Source of the DNA: Alphaproteobacteria bacterium
GTDB lineage: Bacteria > Pseudomonadota > Alphaproteobacteria > UBA828
DNA: 64,000 nt
Assembly: GCA_965221125.1 (NCBI GenBank)
Contig: CBDCRW010000005.1
Location: forward strand, 672,001 to 736,000
Direction of reading: 5' to 3'
Shown here: piece by piece, positions 6,250 through 21,594 of the stretch
Layout of the letters: the number at the start of each line of letters is the position of its first letter
Position numbering within the stretch: position 1 is the stretch's first letter
Notes under the pieces: generated by a model
Told to the model about the DNA's origin: nothing
What the model saw: only the letters and a program-made list of their open reading frames with translations
The model's database searches: none
Translations under genes and position numbers: made by a program

Positions 6250-6426
6250 CAGTCAGGGGGATACTTGCGTTTCGGGAGTTTCGACAGACTTTGCCGAGGG
6301 GTCTGGGCGAGATTGGGGATCGGCAGTGCGTAGAAGCGCGACGCACTAATGCGATACGTCAGCATAACTTATAAGCGCCATAAGTGGATACTCTTGGACG
6401 CTATATGGCCATATCGAATAGGTTAT

Positions 6427-7879
6427 GGTTGTGTCCCCAGACGTGGTGTAGGAGCTCCCGCTACCCCCGGTAGCTGTGGGTAACCGGCTTGGCGCCGCGA
6501 CCGCCCTCGAGTCTGGTGGCGCCAAGCCGGTTATCCACAGCGGGGTGGCCATCGCGGTTCCGGTTTAGGGTTTGGGTGAATCCGAATCGACCCGAGCCTA
6601 AGGAGAACCACGATGACCGATGACAAGCTTACCCTGCGGACGCTGTTGGAGAAGAGCTCTGACGCCGATCTGCTGCGTGAGATGATCGCCTTCTCTGCGC
6701 AGCGCCTTATGGAGCTGGAAGTCGAGGGCCTGACCGGCGCCGAGCATGGCGCGCGGACGCCGGAGCGGATCAACCAGCGCAACGGCTACCGCGATCGGCC
6801 TTGGGAGACCCGGGCCGGCACGGTCGACCTGAAGATTCCGAAGCTCAGGAAGGGGAGCTACTTCCCCGGCTTCCTGGAGCCCCGACGGACGGCGGAGAAG
6901 GCGCTCACGGCGGTGATCCAGGAGGCCTACATCCAGGGGGTATCGACCCGCTCGGTCGACGAACTGGTTCAGGCCATGGGCATGAGCGGGATATCGAAGA
7001 GCCAGGTCTCGCGCCTTTGCGGGGAGATAGACGACAAGATCCGCAGCTTCCTCGACCGCCCGCTCGAAGGCGACTGGCCCTATCTCTGGCTGGATGCGAC
7101 TTACGTGAAGGTGCGCGAGGCCGGGCGCATCGTCCCGGTCGCGGTCACCGTGGCCGTCGCGGTCAACGACCAGGGCCGGCGCGAGATCCTCGGCATGGCG
7201 ATCGGCGCCTCCGAGGCCGAGACCTTCTGGACCGAGTTCCTGCGCTCGCTGACCAGGCGCGGCCTGCGCGGCGTGCAGCTGGTGATCTCCGACGACCACA
7301 AGGGCCTGAAGGCCGCCACCACCCGGATCCTCGGCGCCACCTGGCAGAGATGCCGCGTCCACTTCATGCGCAACCTGCTGGCCCATGCCGGCAAGCAGGG
7401 CCGGCGCGTCGTCTCCGCCTTCGTCGCCACCGCCTTCGCCCAGGACGATGCCGAGGCCGCTGCCGCCCAGTGGCGCCTGATCGCCGACCAGCTCAGGCCC
7501 AAGGCCTCCAAGCTGGCGGCCCTCATGGACGAGGCCCAGCACGACGTCCTCGCCTACATGAGCTTCCCCAAGGAGCACCGGGTCAAGCTTCACTCGACCA
7601 ACCCGCTCGAACGCGTCAACGGCGAGATCAAGCGACGCACCAACGTCGTCGGCATCTTCCCCAACGAGGACGCCATCACCCGCCTCGTCGGCGCCGTGCT
7701 GCTCGAGCAGAACGACGAATGGACCGTCGGAAGGAGGTACATGACGCTGGAATCGATCGCTCCCCTGAGCGACAATCCCACGATCAAGCTGTCCGCTGTG
7801 GCAGCCTGAATAACCCGGCCCTACCCGCCGGATGCCGCGTAAAGCGCGACGCTCTTACACCACTCCTCGGGACACGATC
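6427..7879 (+). mobile_element. Complete IS256-family insertion sequence with 8-bp target duplication TAGGTTAT
   Basis: Left IR GGTTGTGTCCCCAGACGTGGTGTAG; right IR (rc) GATCGTGTCCCGAGGAGTGGTGTAA. TAGGTTAT at 6419-6426 and 7880-7887. Confidence 0.93.
6613..7809 (+). CDS. IS256-family (Mutator-type) DDE transposase
   Basis: [56 protein letters not shown]; RBS AGGAG. Confidence 0.96.
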
Positions 7880-8115
7880 TAGGTTATGTCCTGTCGGGAT
7901 TCGTGCCGGCCGGTCGGTGCCGCAGGCCTGCCGAACATGGAGTGACGGGCATGAAGAATTCGCGGTGTGTGGGCGTGCGAACGGGCGGGGACTCGCTTCG
8001 CCACAGGGCCAATTTTGACGCCGGCCGGCGGGCCCGCGACGGTGTCTGCAGAGCCTTGCGGGCATCCCGCGGAACGGGATCGGCCCCAGGTTCCGCCTGA
8101 CGGAATCCGACATCG

Positions 8116-9276
8116 ATGACTTCGGAACCGAGCATGCCGGCGGGCTCTTCGATGCCGCCCGTTTTCGTCACGGGTTCGGCCGGGCATGTCGGTGCCAACC
8201 TCGTGCGCCGGCTGCTCGACGAGGGCGTGCGGGTCCGGGTGTTGTTGAGACACGAGGACAACAACGAGGGCCTGGACGGTCTCGAGGTCGAACGCGTGTT
8301 CGGCGACATTCGGAATTTTGACGACACCAGGCGAGCGCTCGCGGGCTGTCAGGGTGTCTATCACTGCGCGGCCATGATCTCGACCATCGAAGGCAACCGC
8401 GCCCATCGCCGCGACATGTTCGAGTGCAACGTTCTCGGCACCCGCAACGTGCTGCGGGCGGCGCAGGAGGCGGAGGCCGGCCGGGTGGTCGTTACCGGCT
8501 CGTTCAGCGCGGTGGGATACGACCTGGACGATCCCTCCGCTCCCAGCGACGAGACGATGCCGTTCTACCCCATGGAGCGCACGATGCCCTACGAGCGCAG
8601 CAAGTCGCTCGTCGAGCAGGAGTGCTGGCGCGCGGCGGCAACGGGACAGGACGTGGTGGTCGCGACCTGCTGCGCGGTGGTCGGCGGCGCCGATTTCCTC
8701 CCCTCGCGCCTGGGGCGAACGCTCTGCGACTACACGAACGGCAAGCTCCGCGCCTATATCGATGGCGGTTTCGAGTTCGTCGCGGCCCGCGACATCGTCG
8801 AGGGGCACGTGTTGTGCATGCGCCACGGTCGCTCGGGCGAAAAGTACATCTTCAGCACCGAGTACAAGACCATTTCCGATATCCTGGATCTCTACGAGGA
8901 GGTCTCGGGCGTCCCGCGGCCGCGCCGGCGATTTCCGACCCGCCTCATGCTCGTCTTTGCCGAGATCGCGAGCTTCTATCTCAGCCGCTTTCACCCGGAC
9001 TTCCCCCAGCGCTTCACTCCCGGCGCCATACGCCTGTTGCGAAAGTGCCGCCACGCCGACGTCTCCAAGGCGAAACGGGAGCTCGGCTATCGGCCGACCG
9101 GCCTCCGCGCCGCGGTTCAGGAGGCCTACGCGTTTCACTACGGCCGCAACGCGATCGCGAACCCGCAGGCGAAGCGCCCGCGCGAGGACACCGCGAATCA
9201 CCGCGTCGCGCGAGAAGAGGACGATCCCGTGCCGGAGCGAGGCATGCGGACGATGGCGGGCGGGGGCGCGCCATGA
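8116..9276 (+). CDS. NAD(P)-dependent epimerase/3-beta-HSD-type SDR; SdmB-like sterol C-4 decarboxylase/reductase
   Basis: VTGSAGHVG Rossmann motif and catalytic YERSK. Coupled by ATGA to a Rieske oxygenase in a sterol cluster. Confidence 0.78.
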   Translation: MTSEPSMPAGSSMPPVFVTGSAGHVGANLVRRLLDEGVRVRVLLRHEDNNEGLDGLEVERVFGDIRNFDDTRRALAGCQGVYHCAAMISTIEGNRAHRRDMFECNVLGTRNVLRAAQEAEAGRVVVTGSFSAVGYDLDDPSAPSDETMPFYPMERTMPYERSKSLVEQECWRAAATGQDVVVATCCAVVGGADFLPSRLGRTLCDYTNGKLRAYIDGGFEFVAARDIVEGHVLCMRHGRSGEKYIFSTEYKTISDILDLYEEVSGVPRPRRRFPTRLMLVFAEIASFYLSRFHPDFPQRFTPGAIRLLRKCRHADVSKAKRELGYRPTGLRAAVQEAYAFHYGRNAIANPQAKRPREDTANHRVAREEDDPVPERGMRTMAGGGAP

Positions 9277-10370
9277 GGGCGGCGCCCGACGCGCCGCCCG
9301 GCTTCGAGGATGCCGGCAACCTGCGCCAGCAGGCCCGCGCCGCGGGCATGGACCCGAATTACTGGTATCCGGTCGAGGAAGTGAGGCGGATCAAGCCGGA
9401 GACGGTGATCGAGGTCGTCTTCTGGAAGCGTTCCATCGCGCTCTTCCGGGGAAAGGACGGCAATTTCCAGGCGGTCGAGGACCGCTGCGCGCATCGCCAG
9501 CTCAAGCTCTCCATCGGCGACGTGCAGGGTTGCCGGCTCGTCTGCGCCTACCATGGCTGGGAGTACGGCGGCGACGGCCGCCCCGCCGGGGTGCCCTACG
9601 ACGACCAGGGGCGGAGCTTCCCCAACCTTGCGCTCAGGACCTACCCGGTGAAGGTCCGCTACGGCCTGGTCTGGCTCTTCCCGGGAGATCCGGAGCAGGC
9701 GGAGGTGCGCCGGATCCCCGACATTCCCGAGCTCGAGGGACCCGGCCGCTGGGCCTGCGTGCCGCTCTGCTTCACCTGGTCGGCCCACCACTCGATGGTG
9801 ATCGACAATGTGAGCGACTTCACCCACGCCCATCTGCACCGCCGCTACCGGCCCTTCGACGGCGCCACGCTCACCCGCTGCGAGACCGTCGGCGACGACG
9901 TGCACCTCGCCTACGACACGAGCGTCGGGCGCGGGCGCATCTCCGGACTCTTCGTCGATCACGACCGGATCGACACCAATTGCATGGAGCTTTGCTACGA
10001 GTACCCCTACCAGTGGTCGAACACCGATGACGCGATCAAGCACTGGCTCTTCGTGCTGCCGGTCGACGAGCGCACGACCCGCGTGTTCTTCCTGTTCTAC
10101 TTCAAGTCGCTGAAGATTCCCCTGCTGCCGCTGCGCATTCCCCGCCCCGCCATGAACGCGGTCTTGAGGATCTCCAACCGCCTGCTCATCGCCCCTCTGC
10201 TCTCCCAGGACCAGTTCGCGCTGGAGGCGGAGCAGCAGGGATACGAGGAGCACTGGGACGCCCGCCCCGTCGAGTTCAACCCGGTGGTCAGGGCCTTTCA
10301 GAAGGTGACCGTGCGCAAGTGGCGGGAGCATCTCGCGCGCGAAGCGGAGAACGGCGATGCCGCCGCCTGA
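9273..10370 (+). CDS. Rieske non-heme iron oxygenase; SdmA-like sterol C-4 methyl oxidase
   Basis: Rieske motif CAH...CAYHGW and mononuclear Fe site DNVSDFTHAHLH. Real start is the ATG at 9273, inside ORF 8424..10370. Confidence 0.8.
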   Translation: MRAAPDAPPGFEDAGNLRQQARAAGMDPNYWYPVEEVRRIKPETVIEVVFWKRSIALFRGKDGNFQAVEDRCAHRQLKLSIGDVQGCRLVCAYHGWEYGGDGRPAGVPYDDQGRSFPNLALRTYPVKVRYGLVWLFPGDPEQAEVRRIPDIPELEGPGRWACVPLCFTWSAHHSMVIDNVSDFTHAHLHRRYRPFDGATLTRCETVGDDVHLAYDTSVGRGRISGLFVDHDRIDTNCMELCYEYPYQWSNTDDAIKHWLFVLPVDERTTRVFFLFYFKSLKIPLLPLRIPRPAMNAVLRISNRLLIAPLLSQDQFALEAEQQGYEEHWDARPVEFNPVVRAFQKVTVRKWREHLAREAENGDAAA

Positions 10371-11457
10371 AGCGCTCGACCTCTCGTCGGCGCTCTCCTG
10401 CGGGACCCTGCTCGAGGCGGCGGCGATGGTGCTGGGGTTCATCGCCCTCCTCTTCGTGATGTCGCTGGTCCTGCCGGGTCGTCGCGTCACGGGCCCCGAT
10501 GCCGACGGAAACGAGCGCGTCTACAAGCTCAACGGCCTCTCCCTCTATCTGATCGTCATGATTGCGGCGTGTGGCGCGCAGGCCTCCGGCATTCTCTCCC
10601 TTTCGGTGCTGCATACCCACATTCTCGCCCTCTTCGTCGTGGCGAACGGATTCGCGTTCGCGCTCTCCGGCTGGCTCTACCTGCGCGGCGTGCGAAAGCC
10701 TCATGCATCGCCCCGGTCCTGGCGGGACTTCTTCTACGGCGTGGACGCCGCTCCGGCCTGGTTGGGGCTGGATCTGAAGCTCTTCAGCTATTGCCCCTCG
10801 CTCATCGGCCTCGCCCTCTTCAACGCATCGTTTGCCGCCGTGCAGTACGAGACCTACGGCGAGCTGACCCTGGGGATGATGCTCTACCAAGTCTTCACCT
10901 TCCTCTACGTGCTCAACTACTTCCAGTTCGAGCAGGGGATGATCCACACCTGGGACATCCTTCGCGAGCGCTTCGGGTGGATGCTGGTCTGGGGCGACTA
11001 CGTGCTGGTGCCCTTCTTCTACTGTCTCCCCGGCTGGTGGCTGGTTCACGCACCGGAGCCGCTGTCTCCGGCCGCCGCCGGCGGGATCGTCGTGCTCTTC
11101 GTTTTCGGCTTCTGGCTCTTTCGCGGGTCGAACCAGCAAAAGCACCGCTTCAAGCGCAATCCCGACGCCAGGATCTGGGGCAAGCCGGCCCGGACCCTGG
11201 ACGGGCGCCTGCTGGTCTCCGGATTCTGGGGCATCGGACGGCATCTCAACTATACCGGCGAGATCTGCGTCTATTTCTCGTTCGCCCTCACCACCGGGTT
11301 TAGCTCCTGGGCTCCCTTCCTGTTGCCGGTATGGCTGGCGGGCCTGCTGTGGCACCGCTCGGGACGCGACGAGCGCCGCTGCCGCGCCAAGTACGGCGCG
11401 CTGTGGGAGCGCTATACCCAGCGGGCGCGCTTCGCGATGCTGCCGTTCATCCATTGA
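10357..11457 (+). CDS. ERG4/ERG24-family sterol reductase (probably Delta14-reductase)
   Basis: Polytopic membrane protein with DILRERFGWMLVWGD, NQQKHRFK, LLVSGFWGIGRHLNYTGE and RDERRCRAKYGALWERY signatures. Confidence 0.9.
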   Translation: MPPPEALDLSSALSCGTLLEAAAMVLGFIALLFVMSLVLPGRRVTGPDADGNERVYKLNGLSLYLIVMIAACGAQASGILSLSVLHTHILALFVVANGFAFALSGWLYLRGVRKPHASPRSWRDFFYGVDAAPAWLGLDLKLFSYCPSLIGLALFNASFAAVQYETYGELTLGMMLYQVFTFLYVLNYFQFEQGMIHTWDILRERFGWMLVWGDYVLVPFFYCLPGWWLVHAPEPLSPAAAGGIVVLFVFGFWLFRGSNQQKHRFKRNPDARIWGKPARTLDGRLLVSGFWGIGRHLNYTGEICVYFSFALTTGFSSWAPFLLPVWLAGLLWHRSGRDERRCRAKYGALWERYTQRARFAMLPFIH

Positions 11458-11465
11458 GGCCGGCG

Positions 11466-12875
11466 ATGGCAAACCGAATTCACAGTCTGGATGCGCCGCG
11501 CTCGGCTCGGTTCCGGCCGCGCTCGGAGAACGCCGCTCCCATGCTCGCGGGCGGGTGGCCGTTGCTCGGCCATCTGCCGGAATTCCAGAGGGATCCGGTC
11601 GCCATGTTGAGCCGCGGCTGGCGCGAGCATGGCGCGCTCTTCCGCTTCCGGCTCGGGACCCGCGCTTTCGTTCTCTTCGCCGGGCCCGAAGCCCACGACT
11701 TCTATTTCAGGGCACCCGAGGAACAGCTGAACGCCAAGGCCGTCTACCGCTTCACCGTGCCCATCTTCGGACGCGGCGTGGCCTACGACACCTCCCCGGA
11801 GATCATGTCGGAGCAGCTGGGCTTTCTCTTTCCGGCGCTCCGCGAGGCGGCCATGCGCAGGTTCGCCCTCGTCATGTTCGACGAGGCGCGGCAGTTCGCC
11901 GACTCCCTGGGCAAGGAAGGGGAAATCGATCTGCCGCAGGCGATGAACGAGCTCACGGTCAAGATCGCCGGCCGCTGCCTGATCGGACAGGAAGTCCGCG
12001 ATCGGGTGGACGCCGGCTTTGCCGAGATCTACCGCGACCTGCAGAAGGGCATTAACACCCTGGGATTTTTCCTCCCTAGGCTTCCCGTCGCAGCGCATCG
12101 AAAGCGCGACAAGGCCCGGCGACGGGTGGCGGAGCTCTTCGGCGGGATCATGGCCGCGCGCCGGGATGCCGGGGCCAGCCCCGACGACTTCATGCAGACG
12201 CTCATGAACGCCCGCTACAAGAGCGGCCGCGCCCTCAGCGACGACGAGATCACGGGGATCCTGCTGACGGTGCTCTTCGCAGGCCAGCACACCAGCGCGG
12301 TGCTCGCGACCTGGATCGGCCTGGAGCTGCTCAGGGCGCCGGCGTACCTGGCACGGGCGAGAGACGAGGTGCGGGAGGTTTACCGCGAAGCAGGGTCCGT
12401 GAGCATCGACAGCCTCCAGCGCCAGCCGGCCCTGGAGAACGCCGTCCGCGAATGCGAGCGGCTGCACCCGCCGCTGATATTGCTGATCCGGAAGGTGCTC
12501 GAGCCCCTGCGCTACGGAGACCGCGTCGTGCCCGCCGGCACCATGGCGATGGTGTCGCCGGCGGTCTCTCACCGCCTGCCCCACATCTTCGAGGACCCGG
12601 AGCGCTTCTTTCCCGACCGCTTCGCCGCTCCGGCGTGCGAGGACAAGCAGCACCACTACGCCCTGATCGGCTTCGGCGGCGGCAAGCACGCGTGCATGGG
12701 CAAGAACTTCGCGTACATGCAGCTCAAGGCGATCTGGACCGTTCTGCTCGATCGCTTCGATTTCTCTCTCAGCGGCGCGTTTCCCCGTCCGAACTACGGC
12801 AGCTGGGTGACCGGGCCTGAGAGACCGTGCCGCGTCCGCTACCGTCGCCGCGCGCAGCCGAGCGCATTCTCATGA
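11466..12875 (+). CDS. cyp51: Cytochrome P450 CYP51, sterol 14-alpha-demethylase
   Basis: CYP51-type B'/BC loop YRFTVPIFGRGVAYD, I-helix LFAGQHTS, ExxR ECERLHPP, heme motif FGGGKHACMG. Start at 11466 or 11541. Confidence 0.92.
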   Translation: MANRIHSLDAPRSARFRPRSENAAPMLAGGWPLLGHLPEFQRDPVAMLSRGWREHGALFRFRLGTRAFVLFAGPEAHDFYFRAPEEQLNAKAVYRFTVPIFGRGVAYDTSPEIMSEQLGFLFPALREAAMRRFALVMFDEARQFADSLGKEGEIDLPQAMNELTVKIAGRCLIGQEVRDRVDAGFAEIYRDLQKGINTLGFFLPRLPVAAHRKRDKARRRVAELFGGIMAARRDAGASPDDFMQTLMNARYKSGRALSDDEITGILLTVLFAGQHTSAVLATWIGLELLRAPAYLARARDEVREVYREAGSVSIDSLQRQPALENAVRECERLHPPLILLIRKVLEPLRYGDRVVPAGTMAMVSPAVSHRLPHIFEDPERFFPDRFAAPACEDKQHHYALIGFGGGKHACMGKNFAYMQLKAIWTVLLDRFDFSLSGAFPRPNYGSWVTGPERPCRVRYRRRAQPSAFS

Positions 12876-15800
12876 GCGCCGCCGCGTCGCGGCGTTACGA
12901 CGTGGCCATCGTCGGCGCGGGGCCGGTGGGGAGCCTGTGCGCGCTCGCTCACGCGCGGAAGGGCGCCCGGGTGGCCCTGCTGGAAGCGAATCCCAGGGCG
13001 TCCGAGCGCCTGGCGGGCGAATGGCTGCATCCGCCCGGCGTCCAGATACTGCGGCACTTCGGGATCGGGCCGGACACCCTGCCCCGCAGCACCGCGGGCA
13101 GGGGCTTCGTCGTGTTTCCCGATGACGGCTCGAAGCCGATCGTGCTTCCCTACATGAACGGCTCGCGGGGTCTGGCCTGCGACCATGCGGTGCTCGTCTC
13201 GAAGCTGCGGGACGCCATCGGGAACGAGCCGGACGTGGATTTCTTCGCCCCCGCGCGGGTCGGTGAAGTCGAAGACGGCCGGCTGGCCTTCACCAGCAAC
13301 GGCACGGTTCACACCGTCCGCGCCGCACGGATTATCGGCGCCGACGGCCGGGCCTCGATCGTGCGCCAGTCGCTCGGCCTGTCGACGGACCCGATGCTCT
13401 GCTCGCGCATGCTGGGGGTCACGGTGAGCGGTGTGAGCCTGCCCTTCGAAGGTCATGGGCATGTGCTGCTCGGCGGCCCAGGGCCGATACTCGCCTACGG
13501 CGTGGCAAACGATTGCGTCCGGATCATCGCCGATGTCCCGCTGGACCGCTGGTCACGCCAGGACCGGGTCGGCTTCCTGACGGAATCCTATGCCGCCCTG
13601 CTGCCGGAGACTCTCAGGCCGGCGTTCGTCGAGGCGCTGCGAGCGGGGCAATTCGACGTTGCAGCCAATCAGCTGCGGCCGCGCGTCACTTACGGCACCC
13701 CGCTTCGCGTGTTGATCGGCGACGCGGCCGGGCACTACCACCCCATGACGGCGGTCGGCATGACCCTCGGATTCGGCGATGCGCTCGCCCTCGCCGAGGG
13801 CGGGAGCTTTCGCGACTTCGCCGCCAGGCGCTTCCGGGCGACCCATGTGCCGGAGTTGCTCGCCATGGGGCTCTACGAGGTCTTCGCCGATCGTCGGGCC
13901 GAGGCGGTGGCGATGAAACACGCGGTCTACCGGGGGCTGCGAACGAGCTCCGATTACCGGGAGCGGACCTCGCGGATACTTGCCTGCGAAGATCGATCCG
14001 CGCTCGGGATGGGTCTCGCGTTTTTCGGAACGGCAATCCGGGCGGCGGCCGTGGAGATTCCGCTCTCCCTCCGCCAGTTCGCTCCGCGCCGGGGTCTGAG
14101 GATCTTCGGTGCGCTCGTCGTTCGTCTCTGGTGGCTCCTGCGTTGGGGTCTGCAGCTGCGCCGGTCAAGACGCCGGGGCGGGCGGAACGACGAGCGGGCC
14201 CTGGACAGCCTGGCCCGAGCACTCCTGCACTCCATGCCGTCGGGGCTCGACGCGGCCGGATCCGGCCGGCCGAAGGACTCCGAGGCGCCCGATGCCGGTC
14301 CGGCACTGGCGAGCGCGACGGCGCAGCTCCTCAGCCTCCAGGGCGAGGACGGCGGCTGGGAAGGCGAGATGGTCTGGTGCCCCATGCTCACCGCGCAATA
14401 CGTGCTGCTGCACCACATCATCGGCCGGCCGCTCGAGCCCGGCCGGCGCCGGCGCGTGCTGCGCTCCTTCGAACGGACCCGTCTCGAAGCAGGCTCCTGG
14501 GGCCTGCACGAGCACGCGTCGCCCCACCTCTTCGTCACCGCCATGGTCTACGTCGCGGCGAGGCTGCTCGGGGTCGAGCGTGACGATCCCCTTGTCGAGC
14601 CGGCCCGGCGCTTCATACAGGCCGAGGGGATCGTGGCCATTCCGAGCTGGGGAAAGTTCTGGCTGGCGCTGCTCAACCTCTACGACTGGCGCGGGGTCAA
14701 CGCCGTCCTGCCGGAGCTGTGGAGCCTGCCGCGGCGCATACCCTTGCATCCCTCCAACTGGTACTGCCACACGCGGCTCATCTACATGGCGATGGCGGCG
14801 GTTTACGCGCACCGCTTCCAGGCACCCGTCACGCCCCTGATCGCCGCGCTGCGGGAGGAGCTGTTCCCGCAAGGATTTGCGGAGGTAGATTTCTCCGCCG
14901 CCCGCAGTTGCCTGCGGGAGGCCGACCTCTACGCGCGGCCGAGCGTGTGGCTCAAGGCTGGATACAGGATTGCGCGCGTGTTCGATCGGCTCCACGGCAA
15001 GCGCCTGCGTGCCCGATGCACGGAGGCGATCGTCCGGCAGATCAGATGGGAGCTGCAGACCACCAGCCATACGAGCATCTCTCCGGTGAGCGGCCTTCTC
15101 AACATGCTTGCCCTGTGGCTGCGCGATCCGGACGACGCCGATCTGCACCAGGCGCTCGCGAAGCTGGACGGCTGGTTCTGGGAGGACGAGGAAGAGGGTG
15201 CGCGCGTCGTCGGCGCGAGAAGCGCCTCGTGGGACAGCGGCTTCGCGTTGCAGGCGCTGGCGGCGGCGCCCGCGTTCGACGGGGTAGAGGACGCGCTGCA
15301 GCGCGGCGCCGACTTCCTGCTCAGGCAACAGATTGCCGCCAGCTTCGACGGGTTTCGCGAGGCCTATCGAACCGACCCCAGGGGCGGCTGGTGCTTTGCC
15401 GGGGGATGGCATGGCTGGCCGGTGAGCGACTGCACTGCGGAGGCGGTGCTCGGACTTCACGCTGCCGGTCGCGGCGCTCTGCACGCGAGCGCGTTGCGCG
15501 ATGCGGTCGGGTTCATGCTGCGCTGCCAGAACCGCGATGGCGGATTCGGCAGCTACGAGGCGCGACGCGCGGCTTTCGGTCTGGAGTGGATGAATCCGGC
15601 CGAGATGTTCGGCGATTCGATGACCGAGCAATCCTATGTCGAGTGCACCGTGTCCTGCCTCGCGGCGCTCGCCGCCTGCAGGGAGGACGTTCCGCAAATC
15701 GTGGATGGAGCCGTGACGGGCGCGATCGCCCGGGCCGATGCCTGGCTTCGCCGAACCCAGGCAAGCGACGGGTCGTGGCGCGGCGTGTGGGGGGTTCAGT

Positions 15801-16282
15801 TCATTTACGGAACCCTCTTCGGAATCAGGGGTCTTCTGTCGGCCGGAGCCGGCCCCGACGATCCGGCGCTTCGCTCGGCCTGCCGCTGGCTGCTGGAGCG
15901 CCAGCGGGAAGACGGCGGATGGGGCGAGCACCACAGCGGCTGCCTGACCGGCCGATACGTGCCGCACGAGGAAAGCCAGGTCGTCCAGACCGCGTGGGCC
16001 TTGATCGCACTCCTCGAGGCGAACGAATCGAACTGGACTGCGATTTCGCGGGGCGCCCGCTTCCTGCTCGACGCGCAGGACGCCGACGGGACGTGGCCCA
16101 GGCAGGACATGGCTGGCGTGTTCTTCCGAACGGCGCTCCTGGATTACGTGCTGTACCGACGGTATTTCCCGCTGCACGCGCTCGCTCTCTACGAGCGCCG
16201 CCGCCGCGAGCGGCTGGGTCTCGCCGCCGCCCCGCGCGCCGCCGACGCGCCTGCGGCTCCGTCCGAGGCGGCTGCGGCCTGA
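12872..16282 (+). CDS. Squalene epoxidase - 2,3-oxidosqualene cyclase fusion protein (1136 aa)
   Basis: N-terminal FAD monooxygenase with GAGPVG, RLAGEWLHPPG, IGADG, LIGDAAGHYHPMTAVGMT. C-terminal cyclase with GWPVSDCTAE (15428-15442), several QW repeats (QGEDGGW, QNRDGGF, QASDGSW, QREDGGW, QDADGTW) and WYCHTR. No stop between the domains. Confidence 0.92.
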   Translation: MSAAASRRYDVAIVGAGPVGSLCALAHARKGARVALLEANPRASERLAGEWLHPPGVQILRHFGIGPDTLPRSTAGRGFVVFPDDGSKPIVLPYMNGSRGLACDHAVLVSKLRDAIGNEPDVDFFAPARVGEVEDGRLAFTSNGTVHTVRAARIIGADGRASIVRQSLGLSTDPMLCSRMLGVTVSGVSLPFEGHGHVLLGGPGPILAYGVANDCVRIIADVPLDRWSRQDRVGFLTESYAALLPETLRPAFVEALRAGQFDVAANQLRPRVTYGTPLRVLIGDAAGHYHPMTAVGMTLGFGDALALAEGGSFRDFAARRFRATHVPELLAMGLYEVFADRRAEAVAMKHAVYRGLRTSSDYRERTSRILACEDRSALGMGLAFFGTAIRAAAVEIPLSLRQFAPRRGLRIFGALVVRLWWLLRWGLQLRRSRRRGGRNDERALDSLARALLHSMPSGLDAAGSGRPKDSEAPDAGPALASATAQLLSLQGEDGGWEGEMVWCPMLTAQYVLLHHIIGRPLEPGRRRRVLRSFERTRLEAGSWGLHEHASPHLFVTAMVYVAARLLGVERDDPLVEPARRFIQAEGIVAIPSWGKFWLALLNLYDWRGVNAVLPELWSLPRRIPLHPSNWYCHTRLIYMAMAAVYAHRFQAPVTPLIAALREELFPQGFAEVDFSAARSCLREADLYARPSVWLKAGYRIARVFDRLHGKRLRARCTEAIVRQIRWELQTTSHTSISPVSGLLNMLALWLRDPDDADLHQALAKLDGWFWEDEEEGARVVGARSASWDSGFALQALAAAPAFDGVEDALQRGADFLLRQQIAASFDGFREAYRTDPRGGWCFAGGWHGWPVSDCTAEAVLGLHAAGRGALHASALRDAVGFMLRCQNRDGGFGSYEARRAAFGLEWMNPAEMFGDSMTEQSYVECTVSCLAALAACREDVPQIVDGAVTGAIARADAWLRRTQASDGSWRGVWGVQFIYGTLFGIRGLLSAGAGPDDPALRSACRWLLERQREDGGWGEHHSGCLTGRYVPHEESQVVQTAWALIALLEANESNWTAISRGARFLLDAQDADGTWPRQDMAGVFFRTALLDYVLYRRYFPLHALALYERRRRERLGLAAAPRAADAPAAPSEAAAA

Positions 16283-16348
16283 TTCCCGGTCCCGAGCGTC
16301 GGCGTTCCCGCAGAGGCGCGCGCGGCCGACAGATAACGCCCGCTTCGA

Positions 16349-17380
16349 TCAGTCGTGCGGGGGGCCGGGCTTGCGGGCCAGGAAAAAGAACATCGGCGTG
16401 AAGACGCCGGACCTGCCGCCGTCCACCAGCGCGTCCGCCGCCGCGTTCAGGAGCGTGCTGACCGCGCGGGAGCCCTCGGGAAAGAGCCGAAGCCGTTCGC
16501 CCACCCGCAAGGTCAGGTTGGTCAGCGCGCGGCCGACGGGCGTGCGCGGAAGACTCGAAAGACTGAGGTCACGACCCTGCAAGGCACGATACCAGGGCAT
16601 CTCCGGGTCCGCTTCGGGCGCGCGGTCGCGCGCGTCCAGGAGCTCGAATCCCGCCGTCCGCAACGCGGCGGAAACCTGCGACGTGGAAGCGATGTCCGGC
16701 AGCGCATCGCCGACCATGATGTCGTTCCTGATTCGCCGATGCTCCGCGTTGGCTGAATCGAATTTCTCGGTGAGGCACCAGTCGTAGCCCGCGAAGCAGG
16801 CTCCGGGACGAAGCACACGCAGGATCTCCCGGAACGCCGCTGTCTTGTCGGGCGCGTGGGGCATGGACTCGATCGCAATGGCAGCATCGTAGCGGTCGTC
16901 TTCCTCGGGAATCTGCATGTAGTCGCCGTGAATGAAGCGGCATAACGACCGGACATCCCGGGTGTGAAGTTTGGCGCGCTCGATCTGGTAGGCGTTGTTG
17001 TTGATTCCGACAAAGCTGGCCCCGGAATGGCGGGCCAGATTGCCCGTCGGCCCGCCGACACCGCAGCCGACATCGAGCACGTGCATACCCGGCTTCAGGG
17101 ACAGCCTTTCGGCCAGAAAATGCTGGTGCCGGAGCAGCGACGCCTTGAAGCTCTCGCCCCGCCTTCGGGGAGCGAAGTGAAAGGACTGGCCCCAACCGAA
17201 CTCATAGAAATCGGTCACCAGATCGTAGTAGCGATTCACGAACGAGCGATAATGCTCCTTCCTGCGCTCCAGGCCGGCATCGTAGATTTCGGTGTATCCG
17301 TCGACCGTGGACCTTACTTCGTCCGGGGCGAGATTCGCGAGGGTGCGCGCTTTCGATCGTGCGCCGGAGGTGCGATTCAT
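16349..17380 (-). CDS. smt: SAM-dependent sterol C-24 methyltransferase (ERG6/SMT family)
   Basis: Region I YYDLVTDFYEFGWGQSFHFAPR, SAM motif LDVGCGVGGP, IESMPHAP, RVLRPG..F..YDW, C-terminal GVFTPMFFFLARKP. Confidence 0.93.
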   Translation of the reverse strand: MNRTSGARSKARTLANLAPDEVRSTVDGYTEIYDAGLERRKEHYRSFVNRYYDLVTDFYEFGWGQSFHFAPRRRGESFKASLLRHQHFLAERLSLKPGMHVLDVGCGVGGPTGNLARHSGASFVGINNNAYQIERAKLHTRDVRSLCRFIHGDYMQIPEEDDRYDAAIAIESMPHAPDKTAAFREILRVLRPGACFAGYDWCLTEKFDSANAEHRRIRNDIMVGDALPDIASTSQVSAALRTAGFELLDARDRAPEADPEMPWYRALQGRDLSLSSLPRTPVGRALTNLTLRVGERLRLFPEGSRAVSTLLNAAADALVDGGRSGVFTPMFFFLARKPGPPHD

Positions 17381-17545
17381 CCGTGCATCTTGCCAGAGCC
17401 GCACGTCGTCCCCAAGACCGGCGTGTTGCGGGTTCCAGCGCTTCGCTTCATGTCACCGATACGGACCGCGTCCGGGGTGCCGCCCTCTCCGCGGGGTACA
17501 ATGCGGCAAGCCTCAGCACCGGCGTATCCGAGAGGAGCGAATCGC

Positions 17546-18280
17546 ATGATCGAAAGGCAAGCGGACCGAGGCCCATGCGAATCCGGCACTCACCGGACCT
17601 GGCTGGCAATCCCGCCGGTGGTGTTCGCCGGGTCGATCATCGCGATTCTGACAGCGGCCGGCATCGGTGCGCGCTACGGCGTTCGTGGCGATTTCGACGT
17701 CATTCATGCACTCCTGATGCTCTTCTTTTCGATCAACCTGTTGATATGCCACTGGGAGGTGTGCCTCTTCTTCAGGCGGGATTATGTCGAGAAGCGTGCC
17801 GAATACTGGCGTGAGCGCCGAGACGAAACAGGCCGGACATCGGCCGTCGAATTCCTCACCGGAAGGGTTCCGTTGACGCGAATATTGTCGTCGACGGTAT
17901 GGGCCGACGTCTGGGCTACCTATTCCCAGTTCGACGGTTCCTACGCCGACCGGCGCACGTACGGCTACAACGTGGATATCGCCAACGGCTTCGTAACGCC
18001 GGTGCCGACGCTGATCCTCTTCGCCGCCTTCACCGTCGATTTCCTGCCCGCCCTCGTCGCCGGCATCGTCGGGGCGATGCTGTTCTGGCAGCTGACCTAC
18101 GCGACCTCGGTCTATTGGGTCAGCTTTTTCGTGGCCAAGCGGCAAAGACGCATCGGCCGCAAGGATATGTACATCTACATCTGGGGACTGAATTGCCCGT
18201 GGGTGCTGTTCGCCCTGCTGGGCCTCTACGTCTCCATTCGCCTGATTCTTGACGGCAACTACAGCGTTCTCGGCCATTGA
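17546..18280 (+). CDS. EBP/EXPERA-like membrane protein, candidate sterol Delta8-Delta7 isomerase
   Basis: About 5 TM segments. VWATYSQFDGSY resembles EBP LWKEYAKGDSRY and YIWGLNCPWVLF resembles FVFMNALWLVLP. RBS GAGGAG; divergent from smt. Confidence 0.6.
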   Translation: MIERQADRGPCESGTHRTWLAIPPVVFAGSIIAILTAAGIGARYGVRGDFDVIHALLMLFFSINLLICHWEVCLFFRRDYVEKRAEYWRERRDETGRTSAVEFLTGRVPLTRILSSTVWADVWATYSQFDGSYADRRTYGYNVDIANGFVTPVPTLILFAAFTVDFLPALVAGIVGAMLFWQLTYATSVYWVSFFVAKRQRRIGRKDMYIYIWGLNCPWVLFALLGLYVSIRLILDGNYSVLGH

Positions 18281-18430
18281 TCGCGGCTTCCCCCGGAACA
18301 ACGCCGATCGAGGGTAATCCTTCGGTCATAGAGTGATGGCATGTTGGGCGTTGACATCAACGACCGCGCCTGGAGACGCGCTCGGTAGGAATTGCTGGTA
18401 ACGAATTTCGCCATGCGCTAGCGTGAGTGC

Positions 18431-20716
18431 ATGGCGATTCGCGACGCGTCTGCCGCGGCACACCTCTCGCTGGTCGAGGGGTCTGACGGTCCATGGTCTT
18501 TTCCTCCTGATAATCCGTCCTCCGAAGAGCCGGACTGGCGATCCCTGTCCGAGCGGGCGCACGCCCGTGCGGAGAGCGAGGGGGCGCGGGCAGACGCGGC
18601 TGAAGCGCGCATCCAGGAACTGCTCGGCGATATCCGTCGGCTCCGCGCTTCTTTGCGCAAAACGGGAGCAGCCGGAAGTACGGGGGAGCCGCTGCCGAGG
18701 GGTGCCCGTGGAGCGCACAAAGCGCCGCGAAGATTGCGACGGAACGACACCATCGGCTCGCTGCATGTGGAGAACGCCGAACTGCGCGAGGAGGCCACAA
18801 CGCTGCGCAAGGCGGCGGGTGCGGCACAGACGTCGCTCTCCAGGAAAGACGCCCGGCTGCTCAAGGCCCGGGAACGTTCGCAGGCCCAAAGGAGCACGAT
18901 CGAGGAGCTGCGCCGGCAGGTCCGTTCCCTGGAAAGGCAGGTCGCCCGGCAGAGCCGCGACCTGGAGGAGGCGGAAAGCCGCAGGCAGACTATCCGTGAT
19001 CTCTCCCGCGAGAACGCGGAACTCCGTGGAGCACTCAGGGATTGGCGCGACCAGGAGGCCACCATCGAATGGTTCGACGGCCGCGTCAGCGAGCTGGAAT
19101 GTGCCCTGGACGAGGCCGCAGACGAGAGGCGGTGGATGGAGGCCGATCTTGCCGATCGCCCTCTGTTGCCCGTGGCCTTCGAACGACTGCGCACCCAGGA
19201 GAAGACGATCCAATCGCTCACCGAGAAGATCCAGTCCCTCTCCGAGAAAAACGAGCGGTTGCGGGCCCGGATCACGGACCTGGAGGCGACGGTTGCCAGG
19301 CACCGTGCGAGCAGGGCCGTGCTGTCCAAGGCACTGTTCGGCAGCAAGAGCGAGCAGCAGGAGAAGCCCAGCACGGGGCGCAAGCGCGGCCAGCAGCGCG
19401 GCGCTCCCGGCCACGGCCGTACCCCGCGGCCCGGGCTCGAGGAGCGCACCGACAAGCGCAACCCGCCCAAGGACGCGCGCGCGTGCTCCTGTTGCGGCAA
19501 GCCCTATGTCGCCAACGGCGAGCACGTCTCGACCATCATCGAGATCGAGGTCAAGGCCCACAAACGCAGGATCGTCCGCCCCCGCTGGCGCCGGGGTTGC
19601 GACTGCCCGTCCTCGCCCCTGGAAGTGACGGCGCCCCCGCCGCTGCGCCTGTTCCCCAGGACACCCTACGGAACCAGCGTGTGGGCGAGCTTCCTCTACG
19701 AGCGCTACGCCTCTCTGCGGCCCCTCAGCCAGGTCTCCGCGTGGCTGTCCGGCCTCGGTCTGCCGATCGCTGCCGGCACCCTCGCCGGCAGCGTGGAGCG
19801 CTTCATTCCTGTGTTCGAGCCCGTGGCGGACGCGATCCTCGCGCACCAGAACCAACAGGCGGTCCGTCACGGCGACGAGACCGGCTGGCGTATCCAGTCG
19901 CTGCGCGAGATCGGCCGCTCCAACCGCGCGTGGCTGTGGAACTCGGTCAGCGAGGATGCGGTCTACTTCCACTGCGACCCCTCGCGCTCGGCCGAGGCCG
20001 CGAAGACGTTGTTCGGCGATACCGCCGTCGTCGTGTTCGTGGTCTGCGACCGCCTCTCCAGCTACAAGAAGATGGCGCGCGACCTCGACGGCAAGGTGAT
20101 CCTCTGCTTCTGCTGGGTCCATCAACGGCGGGACTTCATCCAATGCGCGGCCAGCCACAATCGGCTGACGGACTGGTGCCAGAGTTGGATCGAGCGCATC
20201 GCCTCGATCTACAGCCTGAACAAGGCGCGGCTGCGGCATTACGACCCCGCTCTGGAGCGCCAGACGCCACAGTTCGACGCCGCACAGAGAGAGTTGGAGA
20301 AGGCCGTCGACAAGCTGTTCGCGGACGCAAAAGCGGAACTGGCCGGCCTGCCGGCCGGCTCGCGCGAGGCCAAGCCGCTGCGCTCGCTGCTCAACCACCG
20401 CGAGGGGTTGTGCGTCTTCGTCGACAACCCGCAGGTGCCCATGGACAATAACGCTGCCGAGCGGGCGTTCAGGAAAGCGGTCATAGGACGACGCCTCAGC
20501 TTCGGATCCGACAGCGAGGACGGCGCGAAGTTCACGGCAATCATGTACTCCGTCGTCGGCACCCTCGCCATGAACGGCATCGATGTCCGGCGCTGGCTGG
20601 AGGCATGGCTGAAGACCTGCGCGAAGAATGGCGGCAAACCGCCGGACGACTTGTCGCCCTGGCTGCCGTGGTCGATGAGCGAGAAGCGAAGGCGCAAGTT
20701 CACGGCGCCGGGATGA
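18431..20716 (+). CDS. IS66-family TnpC-like transposase with long N-terminal coiled coil
   Basis: ALFGSKSEQ, GAPGHGR, CSCCG zinc finger, HGDETGW, VCDRLSSY, CWVHQRRDF, DNNAAERAFR. Confidence 0.9.
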   Translation: MAIRDASAAAHLSLVEGSDGPWSFPPDNPSSEEPDWRSLSERAHARAESEGARADAAEARIQELLGDIRRLRASLRKTGAAGSTGEPLPRGARGAHKAPRRLRRNDTIGSLHVENAELREEATTLRKAAGAAQTSLSRKDARLLKARERSQAQRSTIEELRRQVRSLERQVARQSRDLEEAESRRQTIRDLSRENAELRGALRDWRDQEATIEWFDGRVSELECALDEAADERRWMEADLADRPLLPVAFERLRTQEKTIQSLTEKIQSLSEKNERLRARITDLEATVARHRASRAVLSKALFGSKSEQQEKPSTGRKRGQQRGAPGHGRTPRPGLEERTDKRNPPKDARACSCCGKPYVANGEHVSTIIEIEVKAHKRRIVRPRWRRGCDCPSSPLEVTAPPPLRLFPRTPYGTSVWASFLYERYASLRPLSQVSAWLSGLGLPIAAGTLAGSVERFIPVFEPVADAILAHQNQQAVRHGDETGWRIQSLREIGRSNRAWLWNSVSEDAVYFHCDPSRSAEAAKTLFGDTAVVVFVVCDRLSSYKKMARDLDGKVILCFCWVHQRRDFIQCAASHNRLTDWCQSWIERIASIYSLNKARLRHYDPALERQTPQFDAAQRELEKAVDKLFADAKAELAGLPAGSREAKPLRSLLNHREGLCVFVDNPQVPMDNNAAERAFRKAVIGRRLSFGSDSEDGAKFTAIMYSVVGTLAMNGIDVRRWLEAWLKTCAKNGGKPPDDLSPWLPWSMSEKRRRKFTAPG

Positions 20717-21594
20717 CCGGCGCCATCGAGTGCCGCTACTACGGGCGCGACTTCACTTCGGAAGAGATGGCGCTGCTGCGCGCGCTCATCGCCGCCGACC
20801 CGCCCCTCAACCGCCATGCCCTGTCCAAGGAGTTCTGCCGGCGCATCGGCTGGGTCAAGCCTGACGGCGGGCTCAAGGACATGATGGCCAGGGTCACCAT
20901 GCTGGCCATGCACAAGGACGGTCTGATCACCCTGCCGCCGCCGAGATGGAAACCGGGTCCGCCAAAGCCCATCGTCTTCGGGCCTGACACCGAGCCGCCG
21001 CTCTTCCCCGCCCCCACTACCCTCGATGACGTTCGCCCGCTCGAGATGCGCACCGTCGTGCGCAACACCCGGGAGGGCAAGCTCTGGAACGAGTTCGTCG
21101 CCCGCTACCACTACCTCGGCTTCAAGACCCTGGTCGGTGCCCAGATGCGCTACGCCGTCCACGGCCGCGACGGCTGGCCGCTCGCCATGCTCGGCTTCTC
21201 CACCGCCGCCTGGAAGCTCGCGCCGCGCGACAGCTTCATCGGGTGGACGCCCGAGAAGCGCGAGAAAAACCTGCCGCTGGTGGTCGACAACCCGCGTTTC
21301 CTCATCCTGCCCTGGATCAAGATCCCAAACCTCGGCTCGCACATCCTCGCCATCGTCCGCCGCCGCCTGCCCGAGGATTGGATCGAGCGCTACAACACCA
21401 CGCCCGTGCTCGTCGAGACCTTCGTCCAGAGGCCGCCCTACACCGGCGCCGTCTACAGGGCCTCGGGATGGATCCATGTCGGAACCACACAGGGGCGCGG
21501 CCGCTATGACAGATACTCCCAAAGGGCCCTGCCGCAGAAAGACATCTGGCTCCGGCCCCTCCGAAAAGACTGGAAACGAGCACTCAACCGATGA
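20713..21594 (+). CDS. DUF4338 (DruA-like) domain protein
   Basis: LWNEFVARYHYLG, GAQMRY, RDSFIGW, NPRFLILPW, LVETFV, YTGAVYRASGW...TQGRGR. ATGA overlap with the transposase stop. Confidence 0.8.
   Translation: MTGAIECRYYGRDFTSEEMALLRALIAADPPLNRHALSKEFCRRIGWVKPDGGLKDMMARVTMLAMHKDGLITLPPPRWKPGPPKPIVFGPDTEPPLFPAPTTLDDVRPLEMRTVVRNTREGKLWNEFVARYHYLGFKTLVGAQMRYAVHGRDGWPLAMLGFSTAAWKLAPRDSFIGWTPEKREKNLPLVVDNPRFLILPWIKIPNLGSHILAIVRRRLPEDWIERYNTTPVLVETFVQRPPYTGAVYRASGWIHVGTTQGRGRYDRYSQRALPQKDIWLRPLRKDWKRALNR

Follow-up and report, generated by a model that had tools for sequence, protein, structure and literature searches.

A sterol C-24 methyltransferase gene in a transposase-flanked sterol cassette of an alphaproteobacterium-like sponge symbiont, predicted to yield C28 and possibly C29 sterols

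Genes for sterol synthesis in sponge-associated bacteria have been described at the level of whole clusters. Kelly et al. 2022 (Microbiome, PMC9531527) reported 'clusters of steroid genes' (CSGs) in Ircinia symbionts of 10 phyla, with purifying selection and horizontal transfer, and described a layout in which an ERG24-CYP51-LSS core is accompanied upstream, on the same strand, by a 'DFR' gene and a hypothetical protein, and downstream, on the opposite strand, by a sterol C-24 methyltransferase (SMT) gene or FDFT1. Brown et al. 2023 (Nat Commun, PMC10070321) reported that metagenomic symbiont SMTs function in vitro, with C28 products from eight of ten sponge-symbiont enzymes, C29 products also from three and C30 (24-isopropyl) products from two, and that their clusters combine sdmA/B with a single gene matching both ERG1 and ERG7. 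That such clusters exist, cross phyla and encode working SMTs is therefore already known from these two reports (PMC9531527; PMC10070321).

Here we analyze a 64,000-nt stretch of DNA (hereafter the window) whose sterol cassette matches the CSGs described by Kelly et al. 2022 in its ERG24-CYP51-LSS core, its upstream same-strand pair and its opposite-strand SMT, but differs in being bounded by IS256- and IS66-family transposase genes; it also holds an EBP-fold gene and a fusion of squalene epoxidase and oxidosqualene cyclase (SE-OSC), both unnamed in the CSG description of that paper. The partner genes are likewise those described for the assayed symbiont SMTs of Brown et al. 2023, namely sdmA/B, ERG24, ERG11 and a fused ERG1/ERG7, and those enzymes fall in the same orthogroup as the window SMT: the P. 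ficiformis enzyme (LXNJ01014139, our locus L084) is 87% identical to it, the S. foetidus enzyme (LXNI01004480, L087) 79%, and Nitrospira sp. coral reef '1 of 2' (L010) 78%, the last assignment resting partly on gene numbers that put this SMT five genes before the fused cyclase. Supplementary Table 4 of Brown et al. 2023 (PMC10070321) includes all three; the paper describes the clusters of L087 and L010 as holding functional SMTs and reports that the Nitrospira '1 of 2' enzyme converts desmosterol to (epi)codisterol.

A further point of comparison is the propylating SMT of an A. aerophoba symbiont (JGIcombinedJ30088_1000083511, 'Ap_sym_SMT'), which adjoins a fused SE-OSC in a cluster of like kind, as the window SMT does, and has the same numbering offset, so that its G249 (G225) stands where the window SMT has Asp225. 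The two differ in this residue, Gly against Asp, and in copy number: the Ap_sym_SMT cluster carries a second SMT paralogue, whereas the window genome (4.58 Mb, seven contigs) has one SMT. Our metagenome scan, with 45 loci, did not recover the propylating contig, JGIcombinedJ30088_10000835. Eukaryotic ERG6, SMT1 and SMT2 share with the window SMT the Methyltransf and Sterol_MT_C domains, Regions I-IV and 25 conserved residues; identity between yeast ERG6 and cluster SMTs orthologous to the window enzyme is 41-42% (Brown 2023 Supplementary Data 1). The window clade departs from the eukaryotic enzymes in having SMP for ATC in Region III and Ile or Phe rather than Tyr at position 192, and the window SMT in lacking two residues between Regions II and III and in being a bacterial gene in an operon context.

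The SMT gene and its cassette

An initial annotation, made from the letters of the window, had read the minus-strand gene as a bacterial sterol C-24 methyltransferase, and this identity is borne out by its conserved residues (below) and its Pfam domains: a class I methyltransferase domain (Methyltransf_11 PF08241, E 3.1e-18) lies N-terminal to Sterol_MT_C (PF08498, E 4.8e-21, 75 bits against a cut-off of 21.7). Region I (GWGxxFHF) and Region II (DxGxGxxGP) are both present with exact spacing by regular expression, and the motifs quoted in the annotation, YEFGWGQSFHF, IESMPHAP and YDW, all appear in the translation, which holds YEFGWGQSFHF, IAIESMPHAP and GACFAGYDW exactly. On these domain and motif matches, membership in the SMT family lies far past chance level. 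No SMT-specific NCBIfam model matches the protein, and its sequence matches in the Protein Data Bank are distant small-molecule methyltransferases only, headed by MitM (2.6e-21).

When the window is translated, the open frame (16349-17404, minus strand; 351 codons) reaches back to GTG 17404. We rejected this GTG as the start and take ATG 17380 as the better one, because the eight codons between them are broken by stops in homologous loci; most homologues found by protein search are 343 aa long. The gene converges on the SE-OSC fusion, with a gap of 66 nt between the plus-strand end at 16282 and the minus-strand end at 16349. None of its neighbors is adjacent on the minus strand, and the gene upstream of it (17546-18280) lies on the plus strand. 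By geometry, then, the SMT gene is monocistronic, as the annotation had proposed (Table 1).

Table 1. Features of the window discussed in the text, with positions in the window or, where stated, in the 343-aa SMT protein.
Feature	Position	Strand	Remarks
Mutator/IS256-family transposase gene	6613..7809	+	PF00872 E 7e-122; flanks cassette
Sterol cassette, transferable block	7891..18313	.	10.4 kb; limits of nucleotide homology
SdmB-like NAD-dependent epimerase / 3-beta-HSD family protein	8116..9276	+	
SdmA-like Rieske/VanA_C oxygenase (C-4 demethylation)	9273..10370	+	
ERG4/ERG24-family sterol reductase	10357..11457	+	sole one in genome
Cytochrome P450, CYP51-like sterol 14-demethylase	11466..12875	+	PF00067 E 1.8e-58
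Squalene epoxidase - oxidosqualene cyclase (SE-OSC) fusion	12872..16282	+	TIGR03463 osq_cycl 752 bits; Pfam SE plus SQHop_cyclase N and C
Sterol C-24 methyltransferase (SMT) CDS	16349..17380	-	343 aa from ATG 17380; Pfam, motifs, homologue length
SMT Region I	residues 59-69		YEFGWGQSFHF
SMT Region II	residues 103-111		DVGCGVGGP
SMT Region III	residues 168-177		IAIESMPHAP
SMT Region IV	residues 193-201		GACFAGYDW
SMT Asp225	residue 225		ERG6 position 249
Promoter-like element TTGGGG-N17-CAAGAT	17387..17415	-	-10 box ends 6 nt before ATG
244-aa membrane protein, EBP / EXPERA fold	17546..18280	+	divergent from SMT; fold search
IS66-family transposase ORF	18431..20716	+	PF03050 E 2e-53; flanks cassette, other side

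The cassette has sdmB and sdmA upstream of an ERG24-CYP51-OSC core and the SMT gene on the opposite strand at its 3′ end, and related loci are carried by sponge-associated bacteria of many phyla. Stop and start codons overlap at three of the four operon junctions (sdmB-sdmA, sdmA-ERG24 and CYP51-SE/OSC); at the last of these, the SE-OSC start (ATG 12872) and the stop codon of CYP51 overlap, and the longest SE-OSC ORF runs from GTG 12827. Brown 2023 Supplementary Data 1 records SdmA homology for the orthologous clusters. Away from the cassette, the genome encodes two adjacent squalene/phytoene-synthase-family genes and a separate squalene-hopene-type cyclase. The plus-strand operon, sdmB-sdmA-ERG24-CYP51-SE/OSC, would carry squalene to a C-14- and C-4-demethylated delta24 sterol, which the SMT would then methylate at C-24.

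The gene divergent from the SMT gene encodes a protein with no Pfam match at E <= 10 and no sequence match in the PDB, and cassettes of different phyla retain it, column identity averaging 64% over 24 sequences. In structural alignments of its AlphaFold2 model (mean pLDDT 76.9), human EBP scores Z 15.2 (rmsd 3.1 Å over 184 residues) and Z 14.7, the sigma-2 receptor Z 10.2, and the next, unrelated structure Z 6.2. Foldseek assigned a probability of 1.00 to EBP, and 22 of 30 matches of the protein in a protein atlas fall in clusters carrying PF05241. The predicted structure has the multi-helix EBP membrane fold, making the product a candidate delta8-delta7 sterol isomerase that would fill the otherwise missing delta8-delta7 isomerase step. 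A full-text literature search did not find the word 'emopamil' in sponge sterol papers.

Promoter, mobility and relatives of the gene

The SMT gene would be transcribed alone from a conserved promoter, and because of the position of the -10 box relative to the ATG (Table 1), its mRNA is probably leaderless or nearly so. Of 88 orthologous upstream regions, 31 contain the pattern TTGnnn-N16-18-nAnn[AG]T-N4-9-start, where shuffled sequences give 0.61 on average and 5 at most, and the -10 box lies exactly 6 nt from the start codon in 28 of the 31 pattern-positive regions, which come from related loci and are not independent. This conserved pattern fits the SMT as its own transcription unit. In the window itself the hexamers are weak, with three of six matches in each, and a promoter scan of 16100-17700 returned 0 sigma-70-like sites. 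Both terminator-like matches in the same interval fall inside coding sequence and were set aside, and we claim no terminator for the 66-nt convergent gap, because it folds no better than shuffled sequences (z +1.3, +1.8). A known riboswitch was also discarded as an explanation for the conserved upstream element, Rfam giving no match at E <= 1 across 16200-17700.

In blastn comparisons the cassette is 88-89% identical to three loci (L002-L004) along about 10.4 kb, with homology stopping at 7891 and at 18313. Third-position G+C is 0.80-0.86 in the cassette genes, compared with 0.89-0.98 in most genes further out.

Relatives of the SMT are numerous and taxonomically scattered. A protein search listed at least 120 protein clusters 75-93% identical to the SMT among its matches, and a scan of species-representative genomes found 249 SMT relatives, the best 80 of which are 68-93% identical. 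By their record titles, these best 80 of 249 represent at least 10 phylum-level groups and include Alphaproteobacteria, Nitrospirales, Nitrospinaceae, Thermodesulfobacteriota, Binatia and Gammaproteobacteria as well as Gemmatimonadota, Acidobacteriota, Opitutales, Rhodothermales, Dehalococcoidia and sponge-named candidate taxa. Many of the related loci bear isolate names styled like those of the MAGs of Kelly et al. 2022. Within the same best 80, all six partner proteins lie within 10 kb of the SMT at 47 loci, and a cyclase match is absent from the retrieved flanks at 28.

We placed the window SMT in a quick maximum-likelihood tree of 128 rows, which covers bacterial and metagenomic sequences only. 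Phylum labels on this tree are clustered, yet they need 18 changes against a minimum of 9; an SH-aLRT of 96 supports a grouping of the window SMT with the P. ficiformis contig and four rows from Alphaproteobacteria. Parts of the window are present in public runs labelled sponge metagenome, and contigs of one sponge metatranscriptome run align to the cluster, including the SMT, most of them at less than 95% likeness, an alignment that does not by itself amount to transcription.

Sequence motifs and the number of methyl groups added

The initial annotation had taken the Region III and Region IV motifs as signs of altered specificity. We compared 192 distinct orthologues (at least 65% identical to the window SMT, from sponge- and coral-symbiont genomes of many phyla) with 112 SMT-like proteins, each representing a 50% cluster and sharing no more than 62% identity with it. 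Region III does depart from the canonical form: EATCHAP is the commonest variant among the 112 representatives (32/112), and ESMPHAP occurs in none of them. Within the orthologue set, however, ESMPHAP is found in 150 of 192 sequences, and because of this contrast (150/192 against 0/112) it is, on sequence counts, a true hallmark of the symbiont SMT clade. YDW, with Asp at 224, is a common variant, present in 55 of 192 orthologues and 21 of 112 distant representatives, where YEW is the commonest form (59/112). Neither motif is private to the window gene. A special specificity signalled by these motifs is thus not supported for the window SMT, and positions 196-198 and 224, which the annotation had linked to the number of methylations, are not among the positions tied to it in what Brown & Welander 2025 report.

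Phe at 83 is found in 188 of 192 orthologues, and Tyr at 192 in one of 192 against 93 of 112 distant representatives; position 249 is D in 129 orthologues, N in 51, T in 8, S in 2 and G in 2. The combination in the window SMT (I192/D224/D249) recurs in 15 of the 192. All three assayed orthologues have F83 and 25 of 25 conserved residues, and two of the three carry ESMPHAP: L087, with FAIESMPHAP and D249, and L010, with N249.

Positions are given in ERG6 numbering, obtained from anchors quoted in the preprint (84GWGxxFHF91, 125DxGxGxxGP133, E195, G217, G268 and others) and ungapped spacing rather than from an ERG6 alignment; yeast residues are those in the mutation names of Brown & Welander 2025. 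The offset between the window SMT and ERG6 is a constant 24 from G217 to G268, which places Asp225 at 249. By this anchor spacing, the window SMT has every one of the 25 residues that Brown & Welander 2025 list as shared by functional SMTs. It has Asp where propylating SMTs have Gly at 249, and it has the Phe at 81 and/or 83 of propylating SMTs in the form Y81, F83 (YEF). At the positions where yeast ERG6 substitutions Y192F, G218L and T219L each permit a second methylation (Brown & Welander 2025), it has Ile192, A218 and C219.

What the analysis establishes is membership in the family, the conserved residues, the genomic setting and orthology with assayed enzymes; substrate, methylation number and leaderless start are inferred. 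The window SMT is likely an active SAM-dependent sterol C-24 methyltransferase of a cassette-borne symbiont orthogroup that gives C28 and possibly C29 sterols, not 24-isopropyl products: a full set of 25 conserved residues together with Asp249 leads to a prediction of C28 products, with C29 possible and 24-isopropyl unlikely. The C28 sterols we expect are 24-methylene or codisterol-type compounds; C29 may arise by a second methylation; a third, to 24-isopropyl, is not expected because position 249 is Asp rather than Gly.

The annotation had gone further and proposed ethyl or propyl side chains. The propyl part is disfavored by Asp249, Gly249 being reported as necessary for C30 products (Brown & Welander 2025), and F83, Ile192 in place of Tyr and A218/C219 do point to more than one methylation. 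Repeated alkylation to 24-ethyl (C29), perhaps 24-propyl (C30), from one active site nevertheless strikes us as somewhat unlikely. It would fit the Phe at position 83 in Region I, as C30 output rises with Phe at 81 or 83 in the enzymes of Brown & Welander 2025; it would fit Ile192 and Ala-Cys at 218-219, where the yeast substitutions allow a second methylation; and the propylating A. aerophoba enzyme has the same place beside an SE-OSC and, as a G249D mutant, still yields C29, keeping 59-85% of its C29 output (Brown & Welander 2025). Yet Phe at 81 or 83 is reported to be neither necessary nor sufficient, and four tested F83 SMTs made 24-methyl sterols (C28) only (Brown & Welander 2025). With respect to Asp249, the G249D exchange eliminated C30 production in both tested enzymes and, in the Chlamydiae enzyme, C29 production too; in the latter, none of 11 substitutions of G249 yielded C30 (Brown & Welander 2025). 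C29 came from just three of the ten assayed symbiont SMTs, and the window SMT is not one of the two orthologues with Gly249.

Source of the sterol substrate and implications

Use of host-derived sterols, also raised in the annotation, is unneeded in the window genome and gains ground only in the wider family. Because the cassette is complete and squalene-synthase-family genes are present in the genome, substrate could be supplied de novo, and by its gene content the window genome needs no host sterol for its SMT. Among relatives, we searched with one query ten symbiont chromosome records that each have an intact SMT orthologue away from a cassette. Four of the ten have a fused cyclase elsewhere on the chromosome (67-72% identity); in the other six no cyclase orthologue was found, a result of a single-query search that does not prove absence of the gene. 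Two of these six gave only a match of about 30% identity, three gave nothing and one a 46-residue remnant. In the SMTs of these six, 24-25 of the 25 conserved residues are retained. Judged from these gene contents, alkylation of scavenged sterols somewhere in the SMT family is supported.

For the window SMT itself, we consider it improbable that the main substrate is sterol from the sponge host or neighboring cells and not the product of the adjacent operon. The six cyclase-negative chromosomes with intact and well-conserved SMT orthologues would be consistent with such a substrate, as would transcription of the SMT apart from the operon, and a similar idea is discussed for a Chlamydiae SMT (Brown et al. 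2023, PMC10070321); but the window cassette is whole, its genes are translationally coupled, squalene-synthase-family genes are present, and a missing match in a chromosome record is no proof that a gene is absent. We give very little credence to an enzyme that is inactive on sterol C-24 or methylates C-26, C-4 or another triterpenoid, since the favorable points (C-26 methyltransferases not identified so far according to Brown et al. 2023, PMC10070321; no activity of four SMTs with the full residue set on either substrate tried by Brown & Welander 2025; a squalene-hopene cyclase also in the genome) are countered by the 25 of 25 conserved residues, by 78-87% identity to enzymes of clusters said to hold functional SMTs and by the C-24 methylation of the Nitrospira orthologue's product.

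Our favored reading of the window gene is thus a C-24 methyltransferase acting on the delta24 sterol delivered by its own cassette. To the clusters already described, the analysis makes a modest addition: statistics on single residues across the orthogroup, evidence that the cassette is IS-bounded and that a promoter of leaderless type is conserved, and the EBP-fold gene.

Side-chain alkylated steranes of C28-C30 are read as markers of eukaryotes, particularly of sponges, and bacterial SMTs weaken that reading. The window gene is one more intact, context-complete SMT example, from an alphaproteobacterium-like sponge symbiont, for which Asp249 yields a sequence-based prediction of no isopropyl product. 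More speculatively, and in our view doubtfully, the SMT orthogroup may be a horizontally mobile, self-sufficient expression unit, driven by a promoter of its own and giving a leaderless mRNA with no need of a host-specific ribosome-binding site; its active site would be tuned at 192, 196-198, 224 and 249 (D, N, T, S or G), setting the number of carbons added, and it would be retained where no cyclase is found, alkylating sterols of the host or community. If that were true, the IS-bounded cassette of the window would capture the transfer vehicle at one moment, and the C28-C30 sterol pool of sponges would be partly a product of the community.

Cassette boundaries and members

The cassette has lower third-position G+C than most genes farther out in the window (coordinates in the table). 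In the related symbiont locus L001, a homologous cluster ends abruptly within CYP51, and a 173-bp stretch adjoining the break is 88% identical to window 6255-6427. At another such locus, L003, a 786-bp stretch related to the region of the DruA-domain ORF (85% identical) adjoins the cassette.

Features of the sterol cassette and its flanks
Feature	Window position	Strand	Remark
IS256-family transposase gene	6613-7809		one bound of the cassette
Sterol cassette	7891-18313		10.4-kb block
Squalene epoxidase + oxidosqualene cyclase (SE-OSC)	12872-16282	+	one fused protein, 1137-1151 aa
TTGGGG-N17-CAAGAT, promoter-like	17387-17415	-	upstream of SMT
Conserved membrane protein	17546-18280	+	244 aa, cassette member
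IS66-family transposase gene	18431-20716		other bound of the cassette
ORF with DruA (Druantia defence) domain	20605-21594	+	E 1.2e-35; just past the IS66 element

The published clusters, in which a single gene ID matches both ERG1 and ERG7, imply the same SE-OSC fusion. The available published cluster tables do not name the isomerase step, for which the 244-aa membrane protein is a candidate enzyme. A Pfam search returned no match for this protein, but its structural model matched human EBP, the sterol delta8-delta7 isomerase (Z 15.2 and 14.7).

A promoter-like element at the SMT start

The start codon of the sterol C-24 methyltransferase (SMT) gene lies 6 nt past the end of the promoter-like element, a placement that suggests a leaderless mRNA. 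The pattern is fitted by 31 of 88 loci, versus 0.6 expected from shuffling, and the position of the element is kept across phyla.

SMT orthologues and paralogues in related symbionts

Intact SMT orthologues are present on six symbiont chromosomes, G003, G004, G005, G006, G009 and G010 (loci L033, L037, L040, L023, L017 and L005), on which searches with the window cyclase found no oxidosqualene cyclase orthologue; on G010, the cyclase is reduced to a 46-residue remnant adjoining SMT. Seven loci (L007, L010, L031, L057, L079, L082 and L083) carry an additional SMT gene close to the cassette. This second copy is a divergent paralogue (39-44% identical) with MVYGWGESLHF as Region I and GALFWGQEM as Region IV, and it thus deviates from the residues that functional SMTs are reported to conserve. 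Its target may be a different substrate or position.

Two SMT orthologues, P0099 (L082 and L083) and P0059, have Gly at position 249 (ERG6 numbering), which makes them candidates for 24-isopropyl sterol formation under the published Gly249 rule (Brown & Welander 2025). In one of the two, Region I additionally reads FEF, with Phe at both 81 and 83 (F81 and F83).
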